A stretch of 64,000 nucleotides of DNA, taken from assembly GCA_040285825.1 (NCBI GenBank), contig JAUPSS010000003.1, forward strand, positions 3,472,001-3,536,000, written 5' to 3'. Below the pieces are notes generated by a model that was not told where the DNA came from, ran no database searches, and saw only the letters and a list, made by a program, of their open reading frames with translations. Source of the DNA: Eukaryota sp. TZLM1-RC. Taxonomy: Eukaryota; Protista; Metamonada: BaSk clade. This document shows, piece by piece, positions 9,496 through 64,000 of this stretch. A program made the translations under genes and the position numbers. Each line of letters begins with the position of its first letter. Within the stretch, counting starts at the first letter, position 1.

Positions 9496-10896
9496 AATTT
9501 CGATTATTGGTTCTTATGAAAGCATTTTTAGGGTTTCTCAAGGCATTGCTGCGAAATACAAAGACATTGGATTAGCCTTGAGTCCCGCAAAATTTCTCTT
9601 GGAAGAACAAAACAATCTCTATTGATTGATGATGTTCAAATTCCTTTCATCAATTATGAACAACAAGCGTTCAAGTTTCTTGGATGTTGGTTAGGTAATT
9701 TGGATGAAATTTATTCCCAACTGAACAATTTATTGGAAAATTTTGACAAGGATCATAGTTTTATTGCTGAATTTGATATCGAAAAACACATCAATTTTGT
9801 TATTTTAAAAATTTGTTATTCTGCAAAATTCACTCATATTTTAAGGTCAACTCCTCCTTCAGTATTTCTTGATTTTTGTAGAACTTTTAACAAGCTTCGG
9901 GACAAATTTTTTTCCTCATTATTGGAGGTAAATGAATCTTTAATTCGAAGTCATGTTTTTTGTTCTGCTGAGTTAGGTGGAATTGGTTTCACGAAATCTT
10001 CGATTTTATGTCAAGCAGCTGTTTTAGGAGGTGGAAAAATTTTGTTTTTGAAAGGTTTCCTGATGATGTTCATCTGATCCATGGTTAATCAAAATTTTTA
10101 TTTGAATCAACTTCAAATTGAATTAGATAATTTGCCTAGTGATATCTGGATTCGGTGTTTTTCTCAAAATATTCAAGAAATTCCCACCCGATCGCTTCCA
10201 AACTTACGTTTTTGCTTGAATAAAGCTTCAGCACCATCTGGTCAAATTATATGAAGGTTTGGATTATGAAGTAAGAATTAGCTTGGCCAAAACTACAAAT
10301 CCCGCTTTCGGTAATTTTTTTTAAAGGATTACGTAATTTTTCTGCTGCTGCGTCAGTAACTCAAATTCCCTCTGTTTATGGACTTTTGTTAAAAAACAAT
10401 GAATGGCTTCTAAACATGCGTTTTCGTTGTTTTCTGTGGCCAAACAATTTGCCCAATCATTTAACTTGTAAATGTGGTAAACCTCTTTTGTTTACTCATT
10501 TTTTGAACTGCAAACATTTCATTTCGTTTAGAAGCAAAGTGCATAATAACGTCAGGGACCATTTATGTAATGTGCAAATCATATCGAGTAGATTCCTTTT
10601 TAGCACCACTGTTAACCAAATTAAATCTTGATGATCCCAATATTGATGATACACGTTACAATAGAGCTTCTATGGGTCTGACAAGAAATGATCTAGTTGT
10701 TCCCGGTTTAAATGGTAGTTTTACTATTTTAGACGCCAAGTCTATTGACCCTTGTAATTCCTCTAACGAACATCTCATTAACTTGGATGTAAATAATCCA
10801 TTTCTTGCAGGCAAAAAATATAAAATTGCTCAATATGCGAAACCCATTTCCTCGATTAATAAAAATTCTTATGCCCAATATAATTTATGTCCCTTT

Positions 10897-11047
10897 TGTT
10901 AGCTGGAGCTAAACGTGACTTTCCTCTTTAGGAAAGAAGATCACGTCATCATTAGTTTAAATTCTAGTTATGTTTTATTTAGTTTGATTTCTTATATTCT
11001 GTTCATAAACTTCTGTTTTGTTTATGTTTAGTGCACGAAAAGCAACA
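10897..11047 (+). repeat. 5' LTR
   Basis: TGTTAGCT...AGCAACA, identical to 17062-17212. Confidence 0.97.
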
Positions 11048-14710: not shown

Positions 14711-14829
14711 TCCACCCTCCAGAAAGAGTTATTTGCTATTGTAATGACTCTCAACCAACCCAACTTGTCGTCTTTCCTGCTCACCAGACACCTGACAATC
14801 TTTTGCGATCACAAGAATCTTTCATACCC

Positions 14830-17067: not shown

Positions 17068-17212
17068 CTGGAGCTAAACGTGACTTTCCTCTTTAGGAAA
17101 GAAGATCACGTCATCATTAGTTTAAATTCTAGTTATGTTTTATTTAGTTTGATTTCTTATATTCTGTTCATAAACTTCTGTTTTGTTTATGTTTAGTGCA
17201 CGAAAAGCAACA
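17062..17212 (+). repeat. 3' LTR
   Basis: Identical to the 5' LTR; preceded by the PPT AAGAAGAAAGAGAAGGCAG. Confidence 0.97.
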
Positions 17213-18629: not shown

Positions 18630-18925
18630 GTTTAAATTTATTAAACTTGCACACTTAACAAAATATACTTATAACTAATGGGATGAAATTCATTGAACCA
18701 AGATTTCCTCCACACAAGTTTGATCTGCTTGATCTCTAGCCAAAGCTTCTCTTATTCCATTGAAAAACCGAAAAAATCTATCAATTCTAGCAAATACAAT
18801 TTGAGAGTGCCATGAAAAGATATCAAATCTTTTCATTGTTTTTTCTTAAACCATTTTTTTGAAAATCATTAAAGTTTTTGCTTCTACTGATAGTTTTTCG
18901 TTTATCGAAAATGGGAAAATAAAAA
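18630..18925 (-). mobile_element. 3' end of an RLE non-LTR element (second subfamily)
   Basis: Reverse complement matches 57230-57520 (GATTTGATATCTTTT...TTGGTTCAATGA...AAGTGTG). Confidence 0.7.
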
Positions 18926-18949
18926 CTAGCTGTGTATTTCTACCAGCAT

Positions 18950-22379: not shown

Positions 22380-22574
22380 TGTAGACAATAGAAGACAGTA
22401 GAATTCAGTATTTAGTTCTTAGTATTTTTAGTTATTTAGTTATTTGTTATAATTTTGTTTCATATTCATATAAGCTGATTTATTTTGAAAAATGGAAGAA
22501 GCAGTGTTGGCGCCTTTGGGCTTATATTTTATGATTAGTAAATCAATCAATTTTTCCTCATTATCTTTATCTCA
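22380..22574 (-). repeat. Partial LTR (ends ...TGTCTACA), homologous to the LTR at 61128-61332
   Basis: Shared core TTCTTCCATTTTTCAAAATAAA(A)TCAGCTTATAT...AACTAAATA. Confidence 0.65.
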
Positions 22575-24500
22575 ACCACTTTTGCAACCTACGGCATCAC
22601 AAATACGCATCTGCGATGAGCCTGCTCGAATATTCTCGGCCAAGCAACAACTTGACAGTTTGCTTGTATTATATTCACTGGTTGACAAGTGCTTCACATC
22701 CTTTTGATAACACAACCATTTCCTAAAAGCCCTTGCTGATCCATATCGATTGACTTTTCGGCAATGAGAAGGGAAATTAGCAGAACCCACAGCAAGATAG
22801 AGTTTATCAGGATGTCCAGCCAGCCTTTGAAATTTGTTGAGACTCTCTCTAAACCGTCTCTCTTTTCGTCTGCGGTTTTCAAATTTAAGTATTTTCCATT
22901 TCTGGCGATTACTTTCCAAATACATTTTTTTGCTGACCAAATTCCACTGGTTCAAATATTGGTTGAAATTTTGAACGGAATATTAGTTGGGAGAATGTTT
23001 ACTGGGTGAAGGTTTTGTCATGTACCTTCTGCCAGTTGGACAAGGGATAACTCCACATTGATAATCATTGAAGAAGTAACCACATAATCTAGATTGGCCC
23101 AGATCAACACCAATAAGGGGCCTTTCAGGTAAATTCTCGACTGGGTGTCTACATCTTCGACGGGATATTTTTTTAGTACCCTTCAACTATGTTTCTCTGG
23201 TTTTGTTGGCATTAGGGTCACTTTTCATTTCTTTTTTCAATCCTTGTTTCTTTTTCGGTGGTTCATCCAGATCACCTGTGTTTTTTGAGTCATTAGTTTT
23301 GCCTTAAAGGGTCAAAAGCAGTTTATTACCATTAGTCTTGAATAACAATTTTTTAACTCTATTTTTCAAACTGTTTCTGTTGATATTGAATTTTTGGTAG
23401 TTATGATTAGTTATGATTTAATTTAATCAAGTGTGCGAATTCAATAAATTGATTTTTGGTAAGAAATCTGTTTGAATATCCGTTTCATAGACATGTATAT
23501 TTGATAAACTTTGTTTTGGAAGATGATCCTTCAATAAGTGGGAATTTTTTTTCACAGATTGGAAAACATCTGAAGGTATTTCAAGAAATTTAAAACCTTT
23601 ATGAGAAGCTAAAGGTATTATTCTAAATTTCTTCCAGCAATGCATATGAGAAAAGAAAGTGAGTAAGTATTGTGAAATTTTAAGATTAAAGAGAAATAGC
23701 TCACCAATTTCATCATCTGAAGACAGTAGGGAAGCATCGGTAGGAAATCTTTGAAGGAGATTCAAGAAAAACTTACATGCATTTAATAAAAAAAATCTTT
23801 CTCTTGAATTATTCAGATTGAAATTGATGTAGTGTTCAAGAACAGAATCAACAACTACTGCCTCGGGTTGGGTTAATGGTTCATCTGGCAAAAGGGAAAG
23901 AATATAATTGGCAGATACATTTGTTTTATCTAGAGCTCTACAATGAGCACGAATAAAGTTTTTTGTCCAAGATTGACAAATTTCAAGTAAAGTTGTCTTC
24001 ACATTAGACGCCAATTGACGAGCTCGACAAGCAAGGTAAGGAGAAAGCCCTTTTCTATTGATAAAATTACAATTCTGACACTGCAGCCAAGCATTGAGAA
24101 AAAGTTTGAATGAATTTCTATAAGGAACTAAAAAACTTTCCCATGAAAAAACAAGAGATCTGTCTTGTGGGCATTTAGGAAGAAATCCACTGTAAAAGAT
24201 ATGGAGTAATTGGCGTTGGCCTTTAGATGTGGAAGGCTTTGGAAAAGAACCAGTGGTGATGACGGTCATTAAAAGCTACCATACATCCTGTTCCACTAAA
24301 GCTCTAGATACCAACGGAACTTTTAGAAGAAAATATTGAAGCAATAAAGAAGCTTCATGACAAATCTCGGTGACCAAAAGGAGGTCAGTCCGAATTTGTT
24401 GCACCGCTGCAGGGGTCAGCAGCGAGTTAAGTGCACAAGACTGAGTGAATACACGTGACACAGAGTGGGTGTCTAACAAGTAATGAGAATAAACAGCTCA
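22575..24500 (-). pseudogene. Fanzor1 (TnpB-like) nuclease pseudogene A, truncated before RuvC-III
   Basis: N-terminal helical segment (VTEICHEASLLLQYFLL), FKTNG (TDG-like), RuvC-I IGVDLG, RuvC-II TSEYNTSK plus Cys pairs; contains stops and frameshifts. Confidence 0.8.
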
Positions 24501-27256: not shown

Positions 27257-30200
27257 TTGTTGCGAAATGATAATACAGAATATCTGGCTGAACATCTACA
27301 TCAAGTATTCCCTATTCTTGATGAAATGAGACTGTGTTTCTTTCATCCTCGTTTCCAATCTATTGTGGAAAAACCGCCAATGAAAGTTGTAAAAAGAGGA
27401 ATAAATAAAACAATCAAGGACCATGACAAGTACTTTGATTTCTAAGTGTTTTCACAATAGCCACTTTGCTACTGTCAGAGGAACATCCTTCTTTTTTTTG
27501 CTGTGTCAATATGAAGATACTGAGTATAAGAAGTTAAAGATTGATTTGATGAATGGTTGTGATTTTGATGCCCTTCAGATTGATACAACATTTTCCACAT
27601 ACGAAACTGCGTATTCAATGCATGAATACGAACATGATGCGTTATTTGATTTTAATGATTTCTCAAATAAACTACACGATTTAAGGGAATCAATTAAATT
27701 AGTATTAAGGGGAATGTTTGTTGCGAAGTCAAACGAAAATATTTCACATTTGGAACTATCAAAAATTGAAGCCAAAAAATAAGAGAATGTCTAAATCCAC
27801 AACTTCATTTTTTACACAATACTCAAACAGGACAATTTTTGTAACAACAATGAGCAACTCTGAGACTATTGCAACCAAACCGCCTCTTTATTCTTTTCAT
27901 TCTAAACAGGATCTTGTGCAAACTCTCAAGTTTTGGGTTTTCCAACGTCATTTTCTAGTTCTGATTCTTTTGTCTAACTTATATGGACGATTTAACAGTG
28001 TTATAAATGAAGACCCTCCGTTGAGTGTAAGTAGACAAGAGTAGAAAGAAATGTATTCTGTAAAACTCATAGTGGTAGGCTAAAGTAATTTGAAGGTTTG
28101 AGGAGTAAATCATGTTGCTATTGATGACGTCATACGGCAGCTTAGTTTTTGTGCAACAGAAGGTAAGAGAAAAATTGTTGCACGACAAAATTATGTCCTA
28201 TTATGAGGTTGTGTTAAAAGTGAAGTTGTGTAATAAGTTGTGGACTTAGACATTCTCAAAAATTATTAAAAATATGGATATATCGAATCGCACTTTGAAA
28301 CAGAAAATTAGTTTTAATTACCTGAATTTCTTTTATCCAATTCTAAAAAACCTTGATGATGAGCTTGGTCAAAGAAGGATTCAATTTCGAGATAATGCAT
28401 CAATGAATCGAGTTTTCCACTACACAGCCAAACAAATTACAATTAATTATGGCAATAATCTCAGCAAACACTTTTATGAATATGTTTTGCGCTGGTTAAA
28501 CATTATCACCTTCAAGAACTTCAGACTACAACAAATTCAGGAAAATCATTTGAAGAAAGAATTATTGACTAAACTCAACAAAGTCAGGGAAGCCATTATC
28601 GGTGTAAATTATGATGAACTTTTAATTTAGTTTGTTTAGTTAATTTCAACTTTGATTAAGGGTGAAAAATTTTATTATACTCAATCAGCCGACCCATTGA
28701 AATTTCTCTCTCATGCTGTATAAATTAACAGAAACATTCAATCATTTTGTTCCCAGGATGGCAAACCTTTGTCAGTGAGTAGGCCTTTTTCATTGACATT
28801 GATCCTTTTACATTGATTCCACAGCATATAAGACTCGATACTCATTGGTTCAATAAAAGATTTAGCAAGTTCAAAGAGAGAACAAATGACATAAGATCAT
28901 CAGTTTTTACCGAAATACTAACTGATAAGGCTTTAGATTCCTACAAACGGGAGACTAAAGGCTTTCAATTGAAATTCTCCTCAATTATAACAGACGGGAT
29001 TGCTTATTCAGTGGTCTTAATTCGTAAAGACCTGGTTGATGGAAATGGGAATGTTTTCAAAAAATTTACTTCCAAGATGTCAGCGCACCCAGAGCGATAC
29101 AACATTCCTTGTCTGAAAATGTGGAAAAAATGAAGTTAAAAGATAAAAGAAAAGTTGCCATTGACCCTGAACGAGTACGATTTAATGCACTGTGTTTCTC
29201 CAAATTCTGCTGTAACTATTAACCCAGAAAAAATTTCACAAAATGAGTTCTCTAAAAAAAGACAACTTCCAGAAATCAGAAATAAAAAACGCAAAGGTAT
29301 TAAAAGAAGAGAGAAACAATTACAAAATCTATCAATCTATTCCAACTCTGAGTCTGATTATGTACGGCTGAAACCCAAACACTGGTGAAACACGTTCAAA
29401 AATACAGCCGGTGAACGCCATTTTGACAGAAAAAGCACTAAATATCGTTCAACGGAAAAAAGAAAATTGGAAAATTGGAAAGTAGAATTACCTGATGGTG
29501 ATTACTCGGGTCAGGATATTTTAAATCAATTTTCTTTATTTTGTAACAGACAGACAACAAAAATCTTGTTTCAGTCAACATTTTGGTCATTACATCAAGG
29601 AATTTGAGCGATACAATGTTCATATGAATATTTTTTACCCAGATGTATGGTTCAGAAAAAGAAAATTTCAAACGTATTCGAAAAATCAAAGAAATGGAAA
29701 AAACATGTTGAAAAGATTCAAATTGACCTTTGGCTCCCCTGAAGACGTAGTTATTGGTTATGGTGGCTGGAGGTCGAAAGAAAATACAAGAAAGGGAAAA
29801 ACGTCAACCATAAGAGAAACCGAAATTCGCAAACTATTAAGGAGATTTGGTTATCGAATTTTCTTAGTTGATGAATATAGAACGAGTAAATCCTGTTCCA
29901 GTTGTGCTGTCAAGGGAATTTTTAGAGAATGTGTCAATGATTCTAGTGTTAAAGTGTTAGGTCCTAAGGGCAAACGACAACTAAAAAGAAAAGCAAAAAA
30001 GTTAAAACAAGAAATTGAACTATTTAATCAAAACAATCCTACTAGAAAAAGAGATTTTCAACAAGAATGGGGTGAACAAAAGGATTCACTAGAAGAAAAA
30101 GCAAAATCAACACCGTGGGGTTTAGTGAAGTGTCAGCCGTGCATCACGTAATGGAATAGAGACTTCAACTCTGCCATAAATATATATTCCAATATAACAT

Positions 30201-35142: not shown

Positions 35143-35454
35143 GTTGGCAAATGTTCTGAATAGTAGGAGAACTTTTGCAGGATTTCAAATATTTTGAACA
35201 ATTTTCAATTCTAAGTGTTGCCAAGTTGCTTCTTTATCGAACAGTATTGGTCTTCTACACAGATTTTGAATTTACAACATAATATATGTATGTCATGGTT
35301 TATACATTAAGCGGTGTGGTTTTCATCCACTTCTATCTATTAGTTCCACAGCCAATATATAGATAGCACTAAAAATTATATGCACTGATGAATTACTTAG
35401 TTCCCAATATCGAATTCATTACCCAATCTATTTATACTTATTGATTCCAATGAA

Positions 35455-36060
35455 AACTAAACAACAAACCTAAAATTCTAAATCTGCATACCCCAAATCA
35501 GCCAAAAAGAATTGACTGGAAGTTTTTCTTTCTTAAAACCGACCAAAAGATAACAAAACAGAAAATAACAAGGGTACAACACCTTTGAAAATACAAAATA
35601 CAATTCTGTTCTGCAACAACGTTTTTTTTATTCCTTATTAGATAAATAAATGAAAAATGGTATAAAATAACTCTTCCTGTACCATGTTTCACAATTTCAA
35701 TGAAATCATCCAAGAAAGATTAAACAAAGATTAAACAAAGCAGCCATTTAAGGAAAAAGCAAATGGACAAAGGACATAAGGAGTATGCGATTCAGCATTC
35801 AAGGATAGCAATTTTGCTTTATATTTATCAATTTTAGAATTTTCATCAACACACGGCCGATTCTTGTGTTTTGACTGAGCTAATGGTATGAAAGAATTAT
35901 TACCCACATCAGTGGATCTCACATCAGTAATGATAGTCGTCCCTTCAAGACCTTGAAGCATTTAATCACCACTATTAGACCAAAAGAATTCAAAGTGTCT
36001 TCATCAACCAAACGAGAGAGCAATGGTTCTAAATAAAGAAGAATTCTGTGTGACTTTGAA
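35455..36060 (-). mobile_element. RLE non-LTR 3' fragment
   Basis: GLEGTTIITDVRSTDV...KIDKYK...CPFAFSL, closely similar to 46920-47474. Confidence 0.8.
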
Positions 36061-40859: not shown

Positions 40860-43800
40860 CAGTGTTCGGAATGGACACGTGTCGAACATGTGTTGAAAAG
40901 CCATGTTCCCTCTCCACTATTGCTTTTCCTCAACTGTCCAATGTCGGATCCCTCCTACAAACTTTTGACACTGCATAACGAATCCTCTTGAAGAAACTAC
41001 TGCTTTGACAGACATTTTTGCCCCGAACTTCGACACAGAGGAGTTGCTCTGTTCGAAAAGCTTCATCTTGCTGATCGCACAACCTTGAACGAAATCCGCG
41101 GGTCTGCTTCACTCAATCTCTTACCAAACTCTCAAGCACCTACTCAACCTCCAGACAAGCAACCACGTATCAATGATGTCTTTTCTTCGGCTAACAACTT
41201 CAAGGCTAATTGTGATCTTGCCCTTTCCAACATGCTCGTTTCTTGTGCACTCCCTCCACATATTGTTCATAACCCTGAATTTAAAAGTTTTTCTCCATTC
41301 TTTTAGAAAACAAATACCAGGTAACAAGTGAGACCACCGTAAGAAAAAGAAATGATTCTTAATGCAAAAGAAGTCTTGGAACAAGAGTTGCAACAGTTTG
41401 TCCAATCACTAGACCACAGTAAATGTATTCTGGTTTTCGATGGGTGGTCAGACCAGGGATGACTAAAGTGGTCCAAAAAATGAAATTAAAGTACTTTATT
41501 TACTTTAAGCTTTACTTTAAACTTTAAGCTTTAAGCTCTAAAATTGGCTAAAGTGGTATAAAGTAGTGAACGCTTCTTTCTTTACTCTCCACCCCTTTCT
41601 CACTTCATTTTTCTTATATATTTTCTTTTGTTAATGACTTCACTCCCTTGTGAGGCTTGGACGAATGTCTGTCAAGTCAACGAAGTTGTTTCAAAGACTT
41701 GTGCGCGCTTTCAATGTCTATTATGCGATGAGGTCTATTCTGTCAACCGATGGGCAATGGAAGGGCATTATGTACCTGACCTACTACCTAAAAGACAGGT
41801 ACCGTTATGCAACCAAATAGGGTGTCCTGAGAGTAACAATGGTAAGAAGGTTGCAGACTTACGAGTGTATCTAGCTACACATTCTAGACAACGCAAAAGA
41901 CGAGCTTCCAGTATCAATAGTCCAGCTCCTAGACAAGCACTTCCGTCCTTTTCAAGTCCTTCTCCACTTACTCCTTTTAGAGGAGGAAGAAGTAGTTCAA
42001 AGAAGTATTGGGACTGGCTGAATGGTGCAGATGTCCCCAATGAACCTGATGAGTTGGAAGTAAGTAGCGGGGTGTCATCCGATGAAGATGTAATTGAGAT
42101 CCATGAGTAGAAGAGTGTTGGTGCTCATCCACCACATACTTAATTTTTCAATCAGTTTTTGATGAGTTTCTGAATAAATGTTAGGTTTTGTTATCTTATG
42201 GTGAATTGAAAAGTTACCTTACTTGAAGAGGATTTCGTAAATAGAATGTTCTCTATTAAAATGTACAACATGTTTGTCAAACCAAATAATGATGACTCTA
42301 CTTTATCAAAAAAAGATTCTTTAAAGTAAAGTAAAATAAAGTAAAGTGCTTAAAGTACTTTACCACTTTAGTTATGCCTGGGTCAGACCCATCAAAAAAA
42401 CACTATCTCAACTTTTTATTGGTTAGTCATTCTGGAGTCTATTTTGTAAAGTCAATTGATACAAGTGGTGTACACAACAATGCCATATATATAGCAACTG
42501 AAATAAAAGCTGTATTAGTAGCTGTTGGTCCATCAAAGGTCACTCAAATTATTTCCGATAATGCACCTGTTTGCCCCGCTGCTGTTGACATCATCCAAAA
42601 TGAATTCGACCATATTCATTTTTCCCCATGTAGCTCTCATACACTCGATTTCTCGATTTGGCTCTAAAAGGTTTTAAAGAAATACTTCCTTTTTCAAATT
42701 TGATACAAAATTCTATCAAACTTTCTACATTTATCATCAATAAAAATGTATTTCGAGAAGAATTCGAAAGGAGATCACCAGACAAATTATTGAAGCCTTC
42801 ACCAACACGCTTTTATACAAATTTTCTTCTTTTTGACCGGCTACTAAAAGTGAAAGAACATTTATTAAGTATAATACTGGCCGACAATGTTGAAAAAGCT
42901 GCTGAAAAATTGAATGCAGACACTAGATCCGAGTATACAAGACTGAAATTTCTAATCGATGGCATATGGTGGAATAACATTTAGGAACTGCTTGAATACT
43001 GGAAGCCTTTTGTTTCATTAATTCGCTTTACAGATTAATTAATTAGGAATAACGTTGTGCTCAGCAAACTTTTGAGTCGTTCAAGGAAATTATGCAACGA
43101 TGTGTTTGAAACAAATTTGTCGTTTTTGTCCTATGATAAAAATGTATCATTGAAGAGTGAGATACAAGGTCGATGTCACCAAGTAATTACCTATTTTCAT
43201 GTTGTTGCACACCTGTTGGATCCTGAATCCCATGTAGAATTAGGAGCAATGAATGACAATCAAGTGGCAGCACTTCAAAAAACAATTATTAAGTGTTTAG
43301 GAGTTGAAGATGGTCGCAAGGCTTATAGAGAATTTTTAGACTACGAGCATAGACCAGGATTCTACTGTAACTTTCTGATGTGGAATGAATGTGATAAAAT
43401 GAGTCCTATGACATGGTGGAAGATCTACGGTTCTAGATATGGTATGCTGTGTGATGTAGCTGTGAAAGTACTTGCTCAAGCCACATCAAGTGGTGCAGCA
43501 GAGCGCAACTGGAGTGTTCACTCAGTTATCAAAACGAAGAGAAGAAACAGAATGAGTCCAAAGTTGTTGGATGACTAGGTCTTCATATATGCAAACTCAA
43601 GACTGAAAAATCAGTTAGCCTGTGTCAATTCTTCAGAAGAATTTTTACCCTGGGATGATGAATATCTTATCGCGGTTCCAGACCCTGATGGTGAAGACTC
43701 GATTGTACCACTTGAAGACTTTGTAGATCCTTGTTATTACGAAAACCTTTAGTTTTGTTTCTATATTTTTATGTTTTTGCACCATAAAGTTGTATCAACG

Positions 43801-46099: not shown

Positions 46100-47524
46100 G
46101 TTGGAGTGACAGACTTTCCACATTTACAAATTAATCCATGAGGAAGATTATCAGGCCAAATAAAAGATCGAAGACGCATAGATAATAAAAAGCAAGGGTC
46201 ATTGAGAAACAAACCATAAATTCTTGGTACTTGATTAATTAAACAAGAAGCAGAACTTTCGCAAACATTCAGTAAAAAATTTGCAAAAGCGGGATTTTTT
46301 TGTTTGGCCATGCCAAGACGTACTTCACAATCCAAGCCTTCAAATATTACTGTCAATTTTTGTTGAAGCTTCTTCACACAATACCTTTAATTAACTAAAT
46401 TTCGTGGAGGAATCTCTTGAACTGAGTCGGGAAAACATTGACACCAAATCTGTGGTGCAATTTTATTAATGGCAACATCAAGGTCATACAAATATTTTAA
46501 AAATGATGGACTGAGCAAATGAATTTCTTCAGGGAAACGATTAAGAAATTCAAAAATAAAATTTTTGCCACCACCAACAAAAGCTGCTTGACAAAGAATT
46601 GAGGATTTGGTAAAGCCAACACCACCGAATTGTGAAGAAGAGAACAAGTGAGCTCGAATTAGCTCAGGATTCCCTTCTGATAGGGAAGCAAAGAAAGTTG
46701 CCCGAAGTTGATTAAATGATCGGCAAAAATCGATAGACAATGAAGGTGCTGTCGACCTCAACAAGTGAGTAATTTTTCCGGAGTAACAAATTTTTAAAGT
46801 AAAAAACTTGATATGTTTTTCAATTTCTAATTCAGAAATTAATATAGAAAACTTATACAGTAAAGTTTATTACATTCCGATCAAAAGTCCATGACGCAGT
46901 TAGGGATCAACTCTATTGTATGTCTCAGTCACACAGAATTGTCTCCTGTTTAGAACGTTTACTTTCTCGTTTGGTTGATGAAGATACTTTGAATTCTTTT
47001 GGTCGTAATAGTGGTGATTTAATGCTTGAAGGTCTTGAAGGGCCCACTATCATTACTGATGTGAGATCAACTGATGTGTGTAATAATTCTTTCATACCAT
47101 TAGCTCAGTCAAAACACAAGAATCGGCCGTCTGTTGACGAAAATTCTAAAATTGATAAATATAAAGCAAAATTGCTATCCTTGAATGCTGAATCGTATAC
47201 TCATTATGTTTTATGTCCATTTGCTTTTTCCTTACATGGTACGCTTGGACCACTTGCTTTATCTTTTTTGGATGATTTTGTTGAAATTGTAAAACAACCT
47301 ACAGGAAGAATTTTTGACAAAATGTTTTGGCAGAACAGAATTGTATTTTCAATTTTCAAAGGTGTTGTCCCCTTATTATCTTCTGCTTTGTTTTCTCTTG
47401 GTCGCTTTTGTGAAGAAAAAACATTCAGTCGATTCTTTTTGGCTGATTTGTGCTATGAAGATATAGAATTTTAAGTTTTGTGTTTAGTTTCTCGTTGGAA
47501 TAAAAAAAATTAAATTAAAAAAAA
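46100..47524. mobile_element. RLE non-LTR insertion with an inverted 5' segment (~46100-46843 minus; ~46858-47524 plus with A-rich tail)
   Basis: The minus part ends at ICKCGKSVTPT; the plus part starts at KFITFRSKVHDAVRDQL, the sequence that immediately follows it in other copies. Confidence 0.8.
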
Positions 47525-49497
47525 CTCAGAATTAATGGGACGAAATTCAGTAAACCAAGCTTACCTCTACAAAATCCTGTTCTGCTTGTTTTCTCGCCAC
47601 TGCTTCTCTTATGTGTTGATCAAGGGTAGTTGTCTACCTTACAAACACCATGTCGAAGGGATACCTCAACGGTCTAAGAGCGCCCCTGATTGGGCAAATT
47701 TTGAACCTGAGACCCAGAAACTTCCGGAACATGATATATACAAAAATATAAACATATCCTGGATTTGAGCGAAAAGCTACCTTCAGAGGAAGCAAACAAT
47801 GTGTTTGTAACTCCTTCAGTAGTGTCATTTCCAGGAAGAAGATTATCATCTATTCCGTCATCTGGACAAAATACACCAATTCCGTCAACTGTAGCGGTAG
47901 CAACAGGCAGCTCATCAGCACCTACAGCATCGAGAGATCCTCTTGTCTTTTCCACAGGCTTATATGATAAACCTGTAACCTATGAAGAGAAACTAATTAG
48001 AATAATCGAGGAAAGGAAAAGACTAAAGAAAATAAATAAAAACAAATAATAAATTAAAGAAACTGGATGATGGATTTGATTCCAAAATTTTTTCAACTTT
48101 TTAGTCAATTTCGCTAATTGGGCAAAGACTAAAAGAGACCGTGATGGACCTATTAGACCTTTCCAGCCTATCACTAAATACGGGCAACCTAAACACGAAT
48201 ATGATTTCCTTAGGACCATGTTTTATGAGATAGACCTCCTCCATATTAGCGAAATGATCGAAGGTACTGTCTTGTCACAATGGCAAACTTGTTTAGGAGG
48301 ACGCAAAAAACCTTTAGGGACAAACGCAACCGACCACGTGATTTGGGAATTTTTGTTATTGAGCACCCAATATAAGACCATTTCCGAGGTGAATCAAGCC
48401 TTGAGTGCGACAAGATACCCTGAAATCAGTCTAAAATCCGCCGAAGTCATTTGAAACACGTTTATAGAGCAGTTTATTTAAATAATGAGACGGTCAACGG
48501 AAATGCCGGTAACCGACGGTCAACCTTCTGTTGTTTTCCTGCTAGGAGGATCTTAGAAGAAATCAACAAGAAAACTAACGATCAATTAGTAAATACCTAC
48601 GGTATTTGGATTGATGAATTCCCACAAGGTGGCAGGGACGTTGTCAAATTGGATGACGCCATATATGCTCTTGGACAAGCCTTCGTGCAGAAATTGAAAG
48701 AATTTAATAATCTGGAGTTATCAATTTTGAAAATATTATTTGGTAACAAACCTTCGTTTAGGGGACCAAGCCAGTCAAGAAATTCCTCAAGAATGCACCC
48801 TAGAAATTCTAAGGATAGTGGTAAACCTAAACATCAACCCAAGCAAATTCTTCCTGGGCAATGGTGTAGCATCTGTAATACAGATAGACACGCTGAAGAC
48901 AAATGCTTTTCAGTAGTAGGTAGACCCGGCAACAAAAAACGAAGAGGTGGTCCAGGTGACAAGTGTAAGTTTTTTAGTAGTAATAAATCAGATGAATACA
49001 CATCTTTTAATATCAAGTTATTATTAATAACCTTACACATAATTCAATCAATACCATTTATAAAATGAGCAAAATGGATTCGAATTATAGACACCTAAAT
49101 CCATTAAAAAGATTTAGAGAGTCGTCCAATCCTGTGGGTTCTATCCACAGTGTTAGACTATCCAGGGAGACAGAAGACTAAACAAGGTCTAACGGGAAAC
49201 TTTGGTTGAACTGTTCAATAAACAAAAAAAGTACAAGGCGAAATCGATAATGGAGCTGCATTCTCAGCATTGTCAATAAATTTAGCCCTCAAATGTAATA
49301 TGACGGTCAATAACAATAAAACCGTCAAATACCTATTGGCAAACGGTATTCGCTCCACGACCCTAGGATGTGCAAGTGGTTTTCTGGCTCTCAATGTCGG
49401 TAACTTGGCCACTCAAGTGTTTTCAAGAATCGAACTCCAGATCATACCTGATACCAACAATTTTTTGATCGGAAGAGACTTATTACAAACCAGCACG
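47525..49497 (+). mobile_element. Decayed gag-protease of an LTR retroelement
   Basis: CSICNTDRHAEDKC knuckle, protease-like EIDNGAAFSA and FLIGRDLL. Confidence 0.7.
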
Positions 49498-51303
49498 TGT
49501 TGCTGTTACTGATAAACTAACCTAGTGAACAGATGAGGAATTCACATGATGACGTGGCACTTGTTCAAGAACAAGTATTTTTATTAATAAAGCTCTCTTT
49601 TCTTCTTTTCATCTTTAGTCTTTCTGCCTAACGGCATCAATAATTGTTGGCCCTCATTGCAGATGTTATCTACACTCGTATTACATCCATTTCTTGCTTC
49701 TATGGAAGTGGATGATGTTCTGTTGTTCCTACAACAGTGGAAGGTGTACTTTTCTATTACACCAAAGTCGGACCTTGTTCCAGCAAGGCTCCTTGTTGAG
49801 CCCTTCTTGTAAGTATCATTGGTTCTCACAAGACCTGGGGTTGATTCATCCGATGAGGTGTTTCTGAATCATTTAAGATCCTCCACCTCGTTTTTCTCAT
49901 ACGAGGAATTCAACTTTATGATCAGATTCGCCAAGGGTATTCTTCCATTAAGATTGCAGAAATTTCTGATTTCTCGAATTTGGGACGAGGTATTCTTCGA
50001 TTTTCCTACATTGGTAAATACCGCAGAAGATGAACTACCTTATTGCACGCGAGTAGCTTCTTGAAACAGGTCTTCAAAGACTGTTTTTGAAAATACTGAC
50101 TCTGTGCGTCAACCTGGTATGAAGTCTCGTTCATCCCATAGGTTTCCCAATCTGACTGACAAGACATGTTTCAAATGTCATCAGAAAGGTCATCTAGCTC
50201 GTGATTGCCCCTCAAAAGTTAAGCACGAAGTAAATCATCTACACCACGTGTCTCAGTATCTCGCAAATCCCCTATCTTCATTATCCTAAATGGTTTACGA
50301 AACTGTTGAAAGAAAATAGGAAGATGTTGTGATGTTGTTACTGATAAACTAACCTAGTAAACAGATGAGGAATTCACATGATGACGTGGCACTTGTTCAA
50401 GAACAAGTATTTTTATTAATAAAGCTCTCTTTTCTTCTTTTTATCTTTAGTCTTTCTGCCTAACGGCATCAATAATTGTTGGCCCTCATTGCAGATGTTA
50501 TCTACACTCGTATTACATCCGTTTCTTGCTTCTATGGAAGTGGATGATGTTCTGTTGTTCCTACAACAGTGGAAGGTGTACTCTTCTATTACACCAAAGA
50601 CGGACCTTGTTCCAGCAAGGCTCCTTGTTGAGCCCTTCTTGTAAGTATCATTGGTTCTCACAAGACCTGGGGTTGATTCATCCGATGAGGTGTTTCTGAA
50701 TCATTTAAGATCCTCCACCTCGTTTTTCTCATACGAGGAATTCAACTTTATGATCAGATTCGCCAAGGGTATTCTTCCATTAGGATTGCAGAAATTTCTG
50801 ATTTCTCGAATTTGGGACGAGGTATTCTTCGATTTTCCTACATTGGTAAATACCGCAGAAGATGAACTACCTTATTGCACGCGAGTAGCTTCTTGAAACA
50901 GGTCTTCAAAGACTGTTTTTGAAAATACTGACTCTGTGCGTCAACCTGGTATGAAGTCTCGTTCATGCCATAGGTTTCGCAATCTGACTGACAAGACATG
51001 TTTCAAATGTCATCAGAAAGGTCATCTAGCTCGTGATTGCCCCTCAAAAGTTAAGCACGAAGTAAATCATCTACACCACGTGTCTCAGTATCTCACAAAT
51101 CCCCTATCTTCATTATCCTAAATGGTTTACGAAACTGTTGAAAGAAAATGGGAAGATGTTGTGATGTTGTTACTGATAAACTAACTTGGTAGACAGATGA
51201 GGAATTCACATGATGACGTGGCACTTGTTCAAGAACAAGTATTTTTATTAATTAAGCCCTCTTTTCTTCTTTTCATCTTTGGTATTTCTGCCTAACGGCA
51301 TCA
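49498..51303 (+). mobile_element. Tandem gag-only miniature LTR element (LTR-int-LTR-int-LTR, 832 bp period)
   Basis: 142 bp LTRs at 49498-49639, 50330-50471 and 51162-51303 (TG...CA), 4 bp TSD CACG, purine tract, internal CFKCHQKGHLARDC. Confidence 0.92.
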
Positions 51304-52092: not shown

Positions 52093-55000
52093 GGGTTAAA
52101 ATATCAAAATACCCCTGAAACGAACTTCAGGTTCTATTACCCCTCGCTTTGAGCGTGGTGCTTATGGACATACATCGCCTCTCCTATACTGACCTCAAAT
52201 TCGGTTGTAAATTTTGAGGACCACAAAAAAAGAAACTTATACGACTGTATTGTTTAAATGACAACGCTGCTTTTAAACTAAAGAAAAGCGAACACAAAGA
52301 GAAAAGGGCAATCTGCGAATATAAAAACTGTACATTTGTGTGTTATGTTTCACGTTTTCAAAAAAGTGCTTATTGTTGGGTCAATATAGGCATGCATTAG
52401 GTAATGAACTACAGATAACCAGAAACGGGTAGTTTATCACAGCGGGTGTGAATAATCAAGGGAAAATTATACAAAAGTCTAATTGAATACGTGATGAGGT
52501 GGCAACACGTGATAACTGTAAGTACATATAACTGATTAGATATGGCAAAAAGCCAACACTACCTCTTCTTTCTTCTTTTGCCTCTTTTTCTGGATTTATC
52601 GAGGTTCAACATTTTTGTATATCGTTATAGGCTACAGTATTTTCAACAGTAACTACAGGTTGAGTCGACTGAGTACCATCGGATCACAAAATGATGGTTT
52701 GGTTATCAGAAATATCTAAGATAGCGTCGATAAGGAGTTCACCGGCGTCAGCGGCAACGTAGGCATTCAGTATTTTATCGGGAAAAGAAAACAGACAGGG
52801 TTTGACAAGGTGTACAGACGTTTTTAGTTGAGAACGGGTTACAGGGTTCTCTACAATAAGCGAACTACGGGTAAGTATTAGTTTAACAACATAAGGTCCG
52901 GCGAAATGGCCATGGAGTTTGTCAGGGTGTTTTCGGAGGACAAAAACTCGGGAAACAGGTTGGGGTTTGAACTTAGGTTCAGGCAGGTCATCTGAAGGCG
53001 GAGTGTTGATCGGGACAGATTTTCACTTTTCCTTGATAGTTAAGGAATGCTTAGACAGGAAGGACATATAGTCTGGGATATCAGGTTGGTCAGGTCTTGG
53101 ATCTAATAATTTCATTACCTCTATAGGAAACTTCCTTGAGAGAGACATCGGAGCCAAAGATGAGTTCATAGAAAGTGGCATTAAGAGATCTTTTGTAGCT
53201 GCTGTTGGCAATTATGTGGCAGAATGGAAGGTAGTCAGACCAATTGTCGTAGTCTATAAAATCGAGCAGGATTTTACGGAGGTTCTGTAAGATAATTCTG
53301 TCTTGTCTTTCAACAAGACCATTGGATTAATGGAAATGGGGAATAGACGTAGGGTGCGTAATATTTAGGAGCTGACAGAGGGAGTCGAAGACAGCGTTAC
53401 TGAGTTCAGTTCCATTATCGGAATAAATAAATGTGGTAGCACCAAATATAGAGTACACATGAGTTAGAATCGCATTGGCAACGGTTATTGCTAATAACTG
53501 ATTGTAATGAGAGAGTACATTTTATTACTATAAGTTCCATCTGGCAGTTGTCTTGGAAGAACTACAGCTTGGCGTTCTCTATCATAGAAGGCTAATTTAT
53601 AGTTATAAACTACGATGTCTAATGGCTTAGCTACTCGGATGTAGTTGTAAATAGAGAGATCATCTAAAAGAGAGCGGTGTACACTATCAACGTGTGAACA
53701 GAGATTACAGGAGAGGAGTTTTTGGGAGAGGAAATAGCCATTAGAAACAGGAGTCAACAGCTGCTTTGTAGCTGGACTATTATCAACTTCTTGGTGTCCA
53801 TATTGGTATGTCACCACGGAATGAGGGCACGTATTGCCTTCATCGCATCAATAATAAAAGTAAACAAATGATGGGTACACCAGGTATTCAGGGAGTGACT
53901 CGGTGGGAGTATCTCAGATCAGCAGCGGTCGGTGAGTGTTAGTGGCAGCACCAGAGATAGGAGGATGGACATAACAGGGAATGGATAAACCGGCGTTTTC
54001 ATCTCCTATTAGTTCTTGCATTTCTAATTTATGTTCTACATCAGTGTCGGACCAGGATCGGGAGCTGAGGAAAGGAGAATACAGAACTTCTTCGTAGATT
54101 TCGTCATAAAACTGGAAGCTATATTTAGAAAAAGGAATTGGGCTTTGTTGACTTGGATTCAAGATTTTGAATCTTAAGAACTCGTTAATAGGCAAAGTCA
54201 GAATATCATTCTCGGTGAATTTATATAAATTGTCACTAACAAATAGGATTTCTGAATTAAGAAAGATATCAGAGGCGTGATCAGGAGAAAAGGGCACCAT
54301 TTCGAGTGGCAGAGGTGCTAAGTGAAGAGGGGCAATATTGTTGATTAACTGTCCTAGGATAACACAAGCTGGAAAACAGTTCAGTCTAATGTAGAAGGCA
54401 TATGGGGGGATCACTTCAGGGAGGTACGATCGAGCAGGGTATGTAGGATCGTAGAAGTATAATCGGTTATTTCAATCACCATGTTGGATAATGTCGGCTA
54501 TTGGAATAAAGCGGTTATGGATTTTTGGTTGGAATGGAATATCATGATTCATACAAGACACATGGGCGTATGGATCATTGGATTTGGATAATGGGAAAAC
54601 GTGTTGGTATATAAAACACAGGTCAGTAGAGAGATTGAAATTATAAGAAGCAGTTCCATTATAGATATTCTCTACATCAAGTCTGTCGAGTAAGGAGAAA
54701 TGTTAAAGGGAATTCAAAATAACAAAGAGATCAGCAACGGAGAGAAGAGCGGTGGAGGTAAGGAGTCTCTTGGCGTCTAAATTATTTAGGATATACCACG
54801 AAGGTGGTGTGTCTCTGGCTAGAAGATAAAAGTATGTTTCAATGGGAGAGAAGGGGAAAATTTGGCTAGGAGCAGAGAAAAAGTATCGGGAGCTGAAACA
54901 GATTAAAGGAGTCAAAATGAAGGGAAGAGTAGCTTGCGAGATATTAATCTTGTCTATTGCTGGGGAACAAAGTTCATTAATGTGGGACAAACGGTTATCT

Positions 55001-56700
55001 GGATTGAGGTTTCCAACTTCAGTATAATACTTGTCATCAAGAACTTCACTAAATCGGGCTTCACCGGGGCAATAGTGGAAACCATGTCCGGTTTGGCAAG
55101 GATATAGCAGAGAGAGACAATCGGGGTTATAATAGGCTGCCATTTTTAAATATGATGCAGTCCGTAGTCTGGCTGCAATTTCTCTTATTCGATCGTCAGG
55201 ATCATAGCTAATTATTTGATGGAGGGGAGTCTTACTATCTTCAATAGTAATCAGAGAGTTTAGTTTCGGGGAAAGTTTTACGTTAGCAGTTCTGGTCTTC
55301 CTCTCCTTTTTTTCTTCTACTAAAAAAGAACGGGATAAGTAATCGGCCCAATAATTACTAGGTCCATTTACTTGGACGCAGTCAAATCAAAAAGACTGAA
55401 ATACGGGAATCCAACGCAGAACCACACGGTTGGAGTCGGGGCAGGAGAGCAGGAATAATAGATTTTTATGGTCACAAAACAATGTAAGATGTTTAGTTTT
55501 CAGATAGGACTAGAGGTTTAGCTGGTTAAGGGTCATGACAATGGCGAATAATTCTATCTGTATTGTAGACCTTCTTTGCTGGGAATGAGTAAGTATTCTT
55601 GAATAAAAGAAAAGAGGGGCAACATTTCTTTTGGATAGGCAGGTTCCAGACTCGGAAGGGGACAGTTCTTTCCAGATGATTCCGGCGATGCCTTTTTCGA
55701 AAGCATCGGTAGAGACTAATATTGGAGAATTATCATCAGGAAACTCCAGGGGAACACTGCCAGCTATTATTTTCTTAATATTTTGGAAGCACTCAAATTG
55801 TTGCTGGTTCAAGGAGATTTTGAGGGTGTTCCTTTCAGCAATTCGGTGAGCGGATTCAAATTCAACGCGAGCACAGAAAGTGCGGTCAGCATTGCGTAGA
55901 ATTGAAGCAACTAGGCTTGAATTACTCTTAGGGGCCACAGTAATTATTGTTGGGTCAATATAGGCATGTATCAGGTAATGAACTACAGGAAAACGGAAAC
56001 GGGTAGTTTATTACAGCGGGTGTGAATAACCAGGGAAAATTATGCAAGAATCTAATTGAATACGTGATGACGTGTGTTACGTGATAACTGTAAATACAAA
56101 AAGCTAACTAAATATGGCTAGAAGCCAACATTATGACAGTATTTGAACTGTAAAAGTGTTAATTCAACACTCTTTTCAAAATTTTGACAACACAACCTCG
56201 AAAACACGAGCAACACCTGGTAAGTATTTGGCATCGTTGCCCCTAGTGAGATTAACAATTCTTGATAATATATCTAAACGAACTATGTCACTGTTACGCA
56301 TTTTAGAATACATTTTTAAAACAAAAATCAGCAAGCACACCGTTAATACGGTTTAAAAATTGTGTAAGGTTGCCCTTTTAGGATCTGAGGAAGACAATTT
56401 CAAGCACCTACCTACGCACTTTGAAGAACTGGTTGCTCTACATCCAGTAATTCATTGCCTTATTGAGTTTAATGGCTTACAGTTTTCTCGATTTTTTCTA
56501 GCCTTGAAATGATCTATTGATGGGTATAAATATTGCATAACTACTGGTGCAAGTTGATGGTACTCACCTTCGTACACAGTACAAGCAAATTTTATTGACA
56601 TCTGCGTCATTGGATGTAATTTTGTGGGTTAAAAATACAGTGTATTTGATAAATGTATTTGAATATATCATTGTTATTGGAAAAGGTGATTGTGAAAATC
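52093..56700 (+). mobile_element. Mutator/MULE transposon remnant split by an LTR element
   Basis: Mu-type terminus GGGTTAAAATATCAAAATACCCCT, MuDR N-domain (FKLKKS...AICEYKNCTF), FSRFF and VDGTHLRTQYKQILL after 56131. Confidence 0.75.
52374..56130 (-). mobile_element. Internally deleted Ty3/Gypsy element, same lineage as 10897-17212
   Basis: Diverged LTRs at 52374-52558 and 55948-56130, TSD TTAT. The gag start is fused to RH (STDAFEKGIAGIIWKEL), followed by a long insert, IN core (SDNGTEL, NGLVERQ) and PPT. Confidence 0.9.
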
Positions 56701-56719: not shown

Positions 56720-57520
56720 TTTTGTAACCATTGTACCACGAAGATTTGGATTGTGTGCCACTAATGAAGCATTTGTAACAAAAATGAGATAATATTTGAA
56801 TATTCCCATTAATCAATTGTTATTTTAAAGAAAAATGTATTTGTTCGAATTCACCACAGCTCACTTTGCGTCATGCTCTGAATTGTTCTAAACTGATAAC
56901 CTTTCGTTCTTCATTACATGATGCTGTTAGAGACACTGTTTTCAATATGGCACGAACTGCAAGAATCTCGTGTATCAAAGAGCCTCTGCTGAAAGAAACA
57001 TTGTCATTGAATAATTTTGGTTCTGATATCAGAAATGATGTATACTGTAATTGGATTGAGAACTCTGAAGCTGTTGTTGATTTTGTCTCCTGGAATGTTG
57101 CAGATGACACTTTGGTTCAAAGAAGAAAACTTAATCTTGTAAGCGCTCTTGAATTTAAAGCTAAAGAAAAACATAGAAAATATGACAAAGATTTCGAAGA
57201 AGCTAATGCTGATAGAAATAGACCACTTGTTTTTATTGCTTTTCCATTTTCGATAAACGGAAGACTATCAGTAGAAGCAGAAACTTTTTTGAATGATTTC
57301 CAAAAAATGGTTCAAGAAAAAACAATGAAAGATTTGATATCTTTTTATGGCGCTCTCGAATTTAATTTGCCATTAGTAATAGATAACCTTGGTTTTTCAA
57401 TCGAATTAGAGAAGCTTTAGCTACACAGAAAGCAGATCAAGATTTTGTAGATAAAATTTTGGTTCAATGAGTTTCGTCCCATTGATTATGAGTTAATTTT
57501 GTCAAGTGTGTAAGTTTAAT
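56720..57520 (+). mobile_element. RLE non-LTR 3' fragment (second subfamily)
   Basis: HALNC...HDAVRD...IKEPLL...KHRKY...FPFSINGRL. Confidence 0.8.
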
Positions 57521-58462
57521 AAGTTATTGTGGTGTTGATTTTGTAATTTTAATTTCTTTTGATTTAATTTATCTAATTGTTGTTTCAATTTTAATATACA
57601 ATGTCTAATTGATAAGGTATAACAAATTCTTTTAAGAGTAATGTTGATATGATCAACTAACTGATCATATCGAGGGTCGCCTGGAGTTGATCAACCCATT
57701 CAAAGTTGCGGAAGCGTCTATCAACGACTTAACCATCATCACCCATCATGCAACGCTATTCTTTGCCTGCCTTTTTCACTGTTTCACCACCTGTTTCAGA
57801 AACTACTTCACCACCTACTACTCTACATTGATGTTCTTTGATTTCAGATAGCAATGTTGTTCATCCTTCAAACAAATGACCATTATCTCCAGTTGCTGAC
57901 ACAACAAATACAATACACCGACACCACTTGATTTCGACAACTATTCACACAACACGGAGCAGAACGCAACTATTCAGATTTCAAAGTTGTATGTACCAAA
58001 GAAAGAAGAAGAAAGAGTAGCCAAAGAGTCAATAACTGGGTATTAGTGAAGCATCATGTCAAAGGAGAGAGGGTTCCTTCCAAAAAGTGTTTTGAATGGC
58101 AGCCAGAACACGCACATGTGTCTGTGTTTGAGTAAGATCATCTTGAAGTAACAGATGAAAAAGTAGAAGACGATGTTGAAAGTGAAGTGGTGCAGATAGA
58201 CTAGGAATTTTATTAGTACCAGGTGCTCATCTGCTTGATTGATTGTATTGTAATGTAGTTTCTGCTGAGTTTCTACCATAAATTGATTTATTATCAAAAC
58301 AATAGTAATTATAATAATGTAATTGAAGCATGAACTTTACCTCAAAATTTCTTAAGATAAAGTAAAGTAAAGTACTTTAGCACTTTAAATTTTACTGAAG
58401 CTTGGGGGATTATTATTCACAAAAACTTGGCCCAACTTTAATAGGAACACATCAAATAGCTG

Positions 58463-62000: not shown

Positions 62001-62244
62001 CTGGGGACCAACATTTCAGAGTCAGAGATGTCCTTCTGAAAGCTGGCTGACTTTTCGCTGATACCTTGCTGATGGCTGTTAATGATGAATCATCTTAGCT
62101 TTTGCTGTAGTTATGTGCGGTATACCTTTTGACTTTGTTGCCTCAGGTCGTGAAGTGAAGAAAAGTTGATTTATTTTCTATTCATAATATATCAACCTAA
62201 CGGCGCCAAAAAAGGACCTAAGGAGTATGCAATTCAGCATTCAT

Positions 62245-62995
62245 GATAGCAACCGTGTAGTGCTCGGTTGGATTCCCGTTCTCCAATCATTCTCATTCGA
62301 CTGCGTCCATGTAGATGGACCTAGTAATCATTGGGCCGATTACTTATCCCGTTTCCTGCTTACAGAAGTAAGTAAACCTGTAACGAAAAAGAAAAAAGAG
62401 GAAGACCAGAACAGCTAACGCTAAAGTCAACTCCATGATCACCATCGAAGCCGGAAAGACTTCCTTTCATCAAGTTACTATTCCTTGTTACGTCCCTTTT
62501 CCTGTTTCCGCTTCCTCCACAAACACTCACCGTCCCATGCTTTTCCGAGATACTTTTAGCGAATGTATTCCGGAATATTTAGCACGCCCTATCTTTGTCA
62601 ATATATACCTTTACTATGATGATGGCAATGCGTGCCCTCATCATGTTGTGACATACCAATACAGTCACCAAAAAGTTGAAAGAAATTCAGTTCCAAAGCA
62701 ATTATTGACTCCTGTTCCCCGTAATCATTACCCTTCCCCTAAACTTCACTCCTGTAACACTTGTCCAGACGTCGATAATATCCGCCGATTTCCCTTAGAT
62801 GAATTCTCAACTGACAATCACATTTCATTAGATACCATTGCTTATAATTATAAATTAGCCTTTTACGACAGAAAACTCCAAGCCGTAGTTCTCCCAAGAC
62901 GACTCCTAGATGGAACATATAGTAAAAAAATGTATTCTCTTATTCCATTCGAAGACCCTAATTAGTCACCTTTTCCTGAATTAGCTTGTTCTGCA
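62245..62995 (+). mobile_element. Gypsy pol fragment: end of RNase H plus part of the unknown insert
   Basis: DSNRVVLGWIP...NHWADYLSR, then IPCYV...TNTHRP...CPHHVVTYQY...NYKLAFYDR, homologous to 53491-53985. Confidence 0.85.
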
Positions 62996-62999
62996 GTTA

Positions 63000-63890
63000 A
63001 TTTTTTTAACTGGAATATTTATTGAGATAAAAAAATTTATCTAGAATTCAATATCCTCCAAACAAGCGTCACTATTACTGAACCTACTCACAGCATTACG
63101 TTCATATTCTACACCAATAGCTAAAAGTGCCTTTGAAATCATTGTTGGAATAGACTTGAAAATGCAAAAAACAATTCTATTTAACCAGAAAGTGGAATTC
63201 ATTGTTGCACCAGACCTATTCAGTAACACTTTTTTGAAATTTTCAAAAAAGCGCAACCCTGAAGGTCCAATATTGCCAAAAAGAGAAATTGCAAACGGCA
63301 CAAAGTGATATTTCACATGCTCCACTCTACCTAACTGTGCCAAAAGCTCTTCATATTTTTTTATCTTCTTTTTTTCGGCGTTAGATAACGACGAATCAGC
63401 GTAATACACTAAACGAGCAGCAGAATTTTTGCAAACATCAACTGAGACAACATCTACAACATTGAGAACACCATCGATCCCTGGAGCTACTAAATCTGCC
63501 CTTCTTTTACCAAAGGAATCATCAGTTTGATCTGAAGACAGCTTACGTACTAATGGCTCAATAAATGCCTCTATATTGAAACTTTTGCACATGGCATATA
63601 ATTGATCACGAACTGAGTCATGAACAATTGAGCGATAAGTTATAAAATACTTACAGTTTAAAATATGGGAAAGCGTAACAACACTCTTGCAGCGACAGAT
63701 TAAATCATTTGGTAAAGAACAAGGCCATAGAAAACATCTCATTGTCATTGCAGTGGTCCATTGGTGATCATTAAGTAGAAGGCCATAAATGTTGGGAATT
63801 TGGGAGATTAGGCAACTTCAGCAACTGTCTTCAAGATCAATCAAAAAGTTTGCAAAAACGGGATTTTTTTTTTAGCCAAGCTAAGACGTA
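63000..63890 (-). mobile_element. RLE non-LTR 3' fragment
   Basis: CRCK...HILNC, HDSVRD, FIEPL, RRADL...DV, KIKKY, and an A-rich tail. Confidence 0.85.
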
Positions 63891-64000
63891 CAATAGCAGT
63901 TAATGTAACCACAAGATCTCAAGTTTCTGGTGATCAAACATCCAAGGTGAGCAGACATCCAAGAGGTTAACCCTGAACCCCTGACTACTGAGTCTACTTC

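Follow-up and report, generated by a model that had tools for sequence, protein, structure and literature searches.

Ty3 of yeast (PDB 7q5b, 4ol8) has long terminal repeats (LTRs) with TG...CA ends, a polypurine tract, a target-site duplication (TSD), the order Gag, protease, reverse transcriptase (RT), RNase H and integrase, and an HHCC zinc finger. It shares these features with a family of elements analysed here in a DNA stretch of 64,000 nucleotides (the window; contig JAUPSS010000003.1, positions 3,472,001 to 3,536,000 of the forward strand). Among PDB sequences, the family matches Ty3 Gag-Pol best (E=1e-44). In contrast to Ty3, the family has approximately 520 more residues between RNase H and integrase, and we refer to this additional segment as domain X, or X for the sake of brevity. 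Protein record P0018, 208 residues of which are 100% identical to the window, is assigned to Eukaryota sp. TZLM1-RC. This isolate is Skoliomonas litria, an anaerobic, free-living metamonad of soda lakes (PMC11603281).

Gypsy elements with extra in-frame domains are already known (PMC6431247, PMC5890265, PMC9289625). The layout has a precedent, missed in a preliminary description of this DNA, in the DAM-LTR elements of the Chloro-Ochrophyta clade. In these Ty3/Gypsy-like elements of unicellular eukaryotes, an accessory domain, DAM, is located between RT and integrase (bioRxiv 10.64898/2026.05.21.726589). However, X is three to four times longer and features neither detectable DAM similarity nor an Asn-Pro-Pro triplet, and the main text of the preprint mentions neither metamonads nor Skoliomonas. 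Tat elements of plants and Chronos and Archon of oomycetes carry an additional domain beside the native Gypsy RNase H. There, the addition can be recognised as an RNase H, and the catalytic residues of the native enzyme are gone (PMC5348765), whereas the Skoliomonas family keeps the native D-E-D-D residues and X has no RNase H likeness. Errantiviruses and Tf1 feature lineage-specific bridges between RNase H and integrase (mini and pseudo-RNase H), but these are small RNase H-like or three-strand modules (PMC13524379), while X spans 500-600 unmatched residues. The giant Gypsy elements of planarians, Burro and GYPSM1, also encode large in-frame extra domains in the polyprotein; these, in contrast, lie upstream of RT and are recognisable as MATH, BCL-2, Env and dUTPase (PMC6431247).

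A full-text literature search, with most subscription papers outside its reach, found no account of X, nor, judged by title, any report of such an element in work on Skoliomonas transposable elements or on metamonad gypsy LTR retrotransposons. The strings "gypsy" and "retrotranspos" are absent from the text of PMC11316075.

A decayed Gypsy element with a long insert in Pol

The domain X segment sits inside a decayed LTR element of 3.76 kb, located on the minus strand of the window. Copies of the family sort into lineage A, which includes this element, and lineages B1 and B2. The features of the element are given below, with relatives denoted by their protein labels (P0004 and others).

56131-56134, minus strand: TSD ATAA, left copy; the same 4 bases occur beyond the 3' LTR at 52373-52370
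55948-56130, minus strand: 5' LTR, 183 bp, TG...CA ends, 85% identity to the 3' LTR
55330-55863, minus strand: RT end and RNase H, with 2 stops (PF17917, E=1e-13; PF17919, E=1e-11)
55267-55329, minus strand: Lys/Glu-rich basic linker after RNase H, from the sequence
55243-55266, minus strand: candidate protease site at the start of domain X, from the rank of its motif score
54799-55242, minus strand: domain X, N-terminal part, including some 125 residues limited to lineage A, with a Cys/His cluster at 55119-55069
54289-54798, minus strand: domain X, middle block, the best conserved part between lineages A and B (phmmer E=2e-10)
53506-54288, minus strand: domain X, C-terminal part, with conserved Cys501, His512, Cys544 and His546; ratio of nonsynonymous to synonymous substitution rates (dN/dS) 0.30
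53491-53506, minus strand: junction left by the deletion, with a shift of frame into the integrase core, from comparison with P0004
52600-53491, minus strand: integrase remnant with the remainder of the core, at DNA level 66-74% identical to the integrase of a second element of the window
52561-52590, minus strand: polypurine tract, from the sequence
52374-52558, minus strand: 3' LTR, 185 bp, with the right TSD copy next to it at 52373-52370

A single minus-strand frame runs from 55938 to 53488. The open reading frame starts at 55938, 55143, 54414 and 53817, which the preliminary description had placed in the same frame, are indeed multiples of 3 apart. The Pfam RT_RNaseH domain covers residues 68-183 of this frame (E=1e-13), the acidic residues of the D-E-D-D set are kept, and the motif that marks the end of RNase H finishes at 55330. 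Downstream, the frame continues for 612 codons (55329-53494), which take in the basic linker of about 22 residues, and is broken by isolated stops only, as had been noted. Four stops are found (54705, 54474, 53916 and 53850) against approximately 31 expected at this composition (P ~6e-10), while the other two frames contain 39 and 66.

The proposed deletion between this segment and the integrase core was also found: the frame ends at 53506-53494, and the core resumes from about 53491 in a different frame. Relative to P0004, approximately 200 codons are missing, corresponding to the last few residues of X, the linker, the HHCC zinc finger and the first catalytic Asp. At the other end, the 5' LTR abuts the RT end almost directly, and gag, protease and most of RT have therefore been deleted. 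The integrase remnant contains what we take to be a GPY/F-like motif. Its tail resembles a chromodomain by eye, but no Pfam chromodomain match was obtained at E<=1.

The segment had been called rich in Pro, Tyr, His and Cys. Compared with five host genes of the window, this holds for Pro (8.0% vs 4.0%) and Tyr (7.2% vs 2.6%), barely for His (3.1% vs 2.6%), and not for Cys (2.3% vs 2.4%). His content is 5.7-7.5% in lineage B X domains. No internal repeats were found within X. Termini or a TSD of its own, which would be signs of a nested insertion, were looked for and not found, and long repeats are absent from the borders of X.

Domain X in relatives and its rate of change

A first search recovered two relatives among 6326 candidates. 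In P0005, RT and RNase H are followed in frame by the initial 250 residues of X, and P0004 carries X, linker, HHCC finger and integrase core, also in frame. A search with the insert of the second element yielded 12 proteins among 591 candidates, a profile search 13 proteins among 4487 candidates, and phmmer over 1.84 billion representative proteins 7 matches. All named relatives come from TZLM1-RC; a further match, P0019, is the fragment present in the window itself. Three further features of the window belong to the family.

62236-62962, plus strand: fragment of another lineage A copy, with RNase H end, X start, an internal deletion and the C-terminal 160 residues of X (58% identity)
10897-17212, plus strand: second Gypsy element, lineage B1, with identical 151-bp LTRs, TSD CTTT and gag, protease, RT and RNase H in one frame
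14824-15486, plus strand: domain X, C-terminal part, of the second element, continuing in frame into linker, HHCC finger and integrase

The RT, RNase H and integrase of the window elements are of the Gypsy type (PF17917, PF17919, PF17921 and PF00665), and the order protease, RT, RNase H, integrase is present in the second element and in P0008. In the second element, the end of RNase H and the beginning of X have been lost through an internal deletion. The LTRs of this element are 100% identical despite a stop in RNase H and the frameshifting internal deletion; hence, either a defective copy was mobilised recently or the LTRs were homogenised. A short tract located 3' of the 5' LTR is alike in both elements (55947-55925, minus strand; 11048-11070, plus strand) and consists of AATTACT followed by a TGG-containing run. 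This tract is a possible primer-binding site, placed 8-10 bases off the LTR.

RNase H and integrase are separated by 519-584 residues in 6 of the 8 proteins in which both borders are present. In the other two, the spacers measure 128 and 210 residues, and both ends of X are kept while the middle is lost. When P0007 is aligned to Ty3 Gag-Pol, matching points lie 599 residues apart in the former and 79 in the latter. X sequences are 23-54% identical across the three sub-lineages. The homology of X between lineages A and B is supported by phmmer (E=2e-10) and by hhalign (probability 98.9, E=2e-17, 382 columns), and the same majority residue is found in A, B1 and B2 at 97 of 421 shared columns. 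Direct BLASTP between the two window inserts was not significant; their homology is visible only through P0004 (1-2 of 1000 shuffles) and profiles. The additional residues of lineage A (about 125) are located near the start of X. Charged low-complexity linkers, acidic and basic, flank X on both sides, and one of them parts X from RNase H in all copies. In lineage B, Gag and Pol form one frame (P0007, P0008 and window 11009-14710), and X would therefore be made together with Gag. We conclude that the segment is a feature of the family, translated in frame within Pol, and not a nested insertion.

Each lineage has a Cys/His cluster of its own: in lineage A it is located in the 125-residue insert, and in lineage B a C-x4-C-x5-C-x-H run occurs elsewhere. 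Both lineages also share the C-terminal Cys/His set of X, and Cys501, His512, Cys544 and His546 may form a zinc site. Signs of module exchange between sub-lineages are observed in two proteins. P0013 combines an RNase H of B1 type with an X of B2 type, and in P0015 the integrase start shares only 59% identity with that of P0007, compared with 82% in P0011.

Neutral evolution of X was tested on 154 C-terminal codons, compared between the 3.76-kb element and the fragment at 62236. The dN/dS of 0.30 (bootstrap 95% interval 0.19-0.47) argues against it; for the 36 codons of the RNase H end in the same pair of copies, dN/dS is 0.15. Among the listed differences in the N-terminal and middle parts of X, taken from low-depth contigs of two runs of one sample, 24 of 36 fall at third codon positions (P=4e-5). 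In comparisons of lineage A with lineage B, X is 23-28% identical, while RNase H is 76-84% and the N-terminal part of integrase 53-60% identical. The branch separating A from B measures 2.4 changes per column for X and 0.12 for RNase H, a difference of about 20 times, in trees of 11 rows, two of which are under half filled in the X tree. Thus, X is under purifying selection, yet its rate of change far exceeds that of RNase H and integrase.

Searches for known families and the possible role of domain X

The preliminary description recognised no known domain in the segment, and this still stands: libraries and profile tests gave no match to any described Gypsy accessory domain. Pfam, PHROGs, NCBIfam and PADLOC gave no significant match in any of the 12 members of the X alignment. 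The best sub-threshold hits, restricted to one member each, were SEC-C (E=0.09) and two PHROGs (E=0.13 and 0.37). The X profile matched nothing among PDB sequences at E<=10. In the ESM Atlas, nothing usable was obtained for P0011 residues 120-626, and the first 208 residues of the segment gave leads below 0.9 only. Single-protein pattern scans, which detect close relatives only, revealed no relative of X in 86 candidate metagenome stretches, in 16 viral contigs or in phage records. AlphaFold2 returned a mean predicted local distance difference test score (pLDDT) of 29.8 for whole X (12-row alignment) and of 37.3 for its C-terminal 217 residues (21 rows). Foldseek found no match for these models at E<=0.001 in PDB and BFVD; the models are too poor for this outcome to be informative.

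Two candidates were not supported. X is unlikely to be a second RNase H, as hhalign of X against the RNase H of the family gave a probability of 0.1% and no Pfam RNase H match was obtained; the D-E-D-D positions of the native enzyme are kept in P0005, P0007 and P0009. An Env protein is unlikely too, as X lacks a conserved membrane segment and is internal to the polyprotein, without a signal peptide. The peak 19-residue hydropathy is 1.0-1.3 in 5 of 7 copies, and the values of 1.65 and 1.79 in the other two occur at non-matching places.

The insert had also been viewed as a captured protein, possibly capsid-like, an anti-silencing factor or a nuclease. No host or viral source was found in the protein, metagenome, viral and phage searches, and none of the proposed functions is backed by a fold or motif. 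Of the three, a capsid-like function is the least probable, given that the family retains a Gag of its own.

The reading that we favour, at a probability of about 0.45, is that X is an accessory protein released by the element protease and acting on the complex of complementary DNA (cDNA) and integrase. Whatever is encoded within Pol is produced and packaged along with RT and integrase. X, read in frame with its RNase H and integrase neighbours, would fold as a soluble, perhaps zinc-binding, protein. The protease would cut about 25-30 residues upstream of the first helix of integrase and, with less certainty, behind RNase H. The freed X would be packed into the particle, travel with the new cDNA copy and act on the cDNA-integrase complex, probably shielding or steering it against the host. 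A host-facing accessory protein fits a domain that is conserved yet far faster-changing than its enzyme neighbours better than a core enzyme does.

Release from Pol, as proposed earlier, has fair support from motif ranking on the integrase side and weak support on the RNase H side. Candidate sites were ranked by a six-residue cleavage score, for which four candidate junctions lying upstream of RT served as the training set. Among the 8 proteins with an integrase start, a site located 24-30 residues ahead of it ranked first in 4 and second or third in 3, and was unranked in one. For the RNase H-side site, the rank was 1 of 405 in P0005 and, in the copy of the window, 3 of 700.

Several observations weigh against this reading. 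In all 7 lineage B proteins, the RNase H-side site is outside the top 5. The four training sites were picked by ourselves, and the Ser-rich linker lifts the scores, so that the evidence for cleavage is weak. All relatives come from one genome and were fished with X as the query, so that copies devoid of X could not appear. They are, moreover, predicted gene models read without their DNA, in which false introns may bridge breaks; P0018 holds a join of this type when set against the window DNA. The fast change of X can reflect relaxed constraint instead of conflict with the host. The slowness of RNase H may be partly apparent, because modules recombine, as in P0013. Finally, the function is one that we infer, without a fold or motif match. 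A bolder version, in which X is a fourth mature Pol protein of undescribed fold, packed with the cDNA and engaged in an arms race with the transposon defence of the metamonad host, is offered as a tentative proposal that is less likely to be right than wrong.

Alternatively, X may remain attached to RT-RNase H and form an unusually big bridge extension that aids reverse transcription or RT-integrase assembly. Bridge domains have been described at this position (PMC13524379), and such an arrangement would agree with the cleavage ranking, in which the top candidate is on the integrase side and the RNase H-side site is good in lineage A only. However, X comprises 500-600 residues without RNase H likeness, its identity of 23-28%, where RNase H reaches 76-84%, is low for a component of the RT machinery, and the charged linker sets it apart from RNase H in every copy. 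We regard this alternative as unlikely, albeit with an appreciable chance.

It is less probable still that X contains, as its middle block, a degenerate DAM adenine methyltransferase of the DIRS type, which would make the family a highly diverged DAM-LTR lineage that marks or binds its own DNA. By eye, part of the block (54639-54406) faintly follows a DAM-like pattern, with an Asp-ending strand, a Trp, an aromatic-x-x-Pro run and a hydrophobic strand, and lineage A has DPTY where DAM has [NF]PP[YF]. In an unfiltered hmmsearch, a profile of 4 DIRS DAM sequences found the guessed register in P0011, with E=0.3 among 12 sequences. This set, a shallow one, was drawn from metagenome loci: 4 of 6 motif matches from 237 pattern loci were kept, two unrelated phage proteins being dropped, and two of the 4 retained sequences give weak Pfam Dam matches. 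In contrast, hhalign of X gave a probability of 0.02% against 12 phage DAMs, and of 0.3% (E=0.2, in a different register) against the 4 DIRS DAMs, while the positive control, phage DAM against DIRS DAM, reached 93.6% (E=2e-7). Pfam Dam, NCBIfam and PADLOC gave no match in the 12 X members. The Asn-Pro-Pro triplet, almost universal in DAM according to the preprint (10.64898/2026.05.21.726589), is absent. DPTY is found in the only lineage A copy covering the site, and His-Pro-Lys/Arg-Met in lineage B. A DAM domain would, moreover, account for only some 150 of the 500-600 residues of X. A DAM identity of X was thus not supported by the profile tests, while the control passed; as the DIRS profile was shallow, a remote DAM origin keeps a small probability.

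Slightly less probable is that X is another enzyme, such as a nuclease, deaminase or cytosine methyltransferase, diverged past recognition. Gypsy elements have captured enzymes repeatedly (PMC5890265, PMC9289625), and His, Asp, Cys and Arg positions of X are conserved across A, B1 and B2. However, 51 of the 97 shared positions are Pro, Leu, Tyr or Phe, a structural pattern; five libraries gave no family match; and a PCQ triplet recalling cytosine methyltransferases is confined to the lineage A insert.

A structural particle protein, either a second capsid layer or an Env-like entry protein, is very unlikely. Fast evolution, richness in Pro and Tyr and production at Gag level, where Gag and Pol are one frame, would suit such a role, but the family retains a Gag region that includes a CCHC knuckle, the membrane and signal features are missing, as reported above for Env, and no PHROG, PDB-sequence or phage match was found. 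A nested insertion, or neutral DNA open by chance, is compatible with the window copy being dead, with 4 stops in X and deletions on both sides, but can practically be dismissed given the bare borders, the homologous in-frame junctions in three sub-lineages and the dN/dS of 0.30.

Other repeats of the window and the significance of domain X

The window contains remnants of several other mobile elements. The region 48424-51303 holds a third LTR-type element remnant, with zinc-knuckle-like and protease-like motifs recognised by eye and an 832-bp tandem duplication (49497-51303). Many fragments of one repeat family are found at 9273-10902, 18635-18954, 35430-36055, 46230-47612, 56800-57525 and 63041-63891. 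In its motif, this family resembles the C-terminal endonuclease end of a non-LTR retrotransposon; the fragment at 63044-63817 gave no Pfam match. A hAT transposase C-terminal dimerisation fragment (PF05699, E=3e-10) maps to 43039-43578 on the plus strand. A TnpB/Fanzor-like fragment at 29525-30151 (plus strand) gave weak matches to Cas12f1-like TNB (E=0.001, under the Pfam cut-off) and RuvX (E=0.02), and another at 22572-22982 (minus strand), similar by eye in its motif, gave no TNB or RuvX match. The region 1224-5670 is a 4.4-kb inverted duplication (97.5%) carrying two calreticulin genes (PF00262) arranged tail to tail, either a palindrome or an assembly artefact.

The Pol extras so far described at the position of X are RNase H copies, small bridge modules and DAM, all of which are recognisable. 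The Skoliomonas family is a real, apparently undescribed Ty3/Gypsy variant that carries a large orphan domain in Pol and is known from a single genome, and it belongs to a group of eukaryotes whose LTR elements seem unstudied. An orphan of 500-600 residues under selection in three diverged sub-lineages suggests an uncatalogued retrotransposon function. As X changes far faster than the surrounding enzymes, it may point to how the host protist restricts its transposons.

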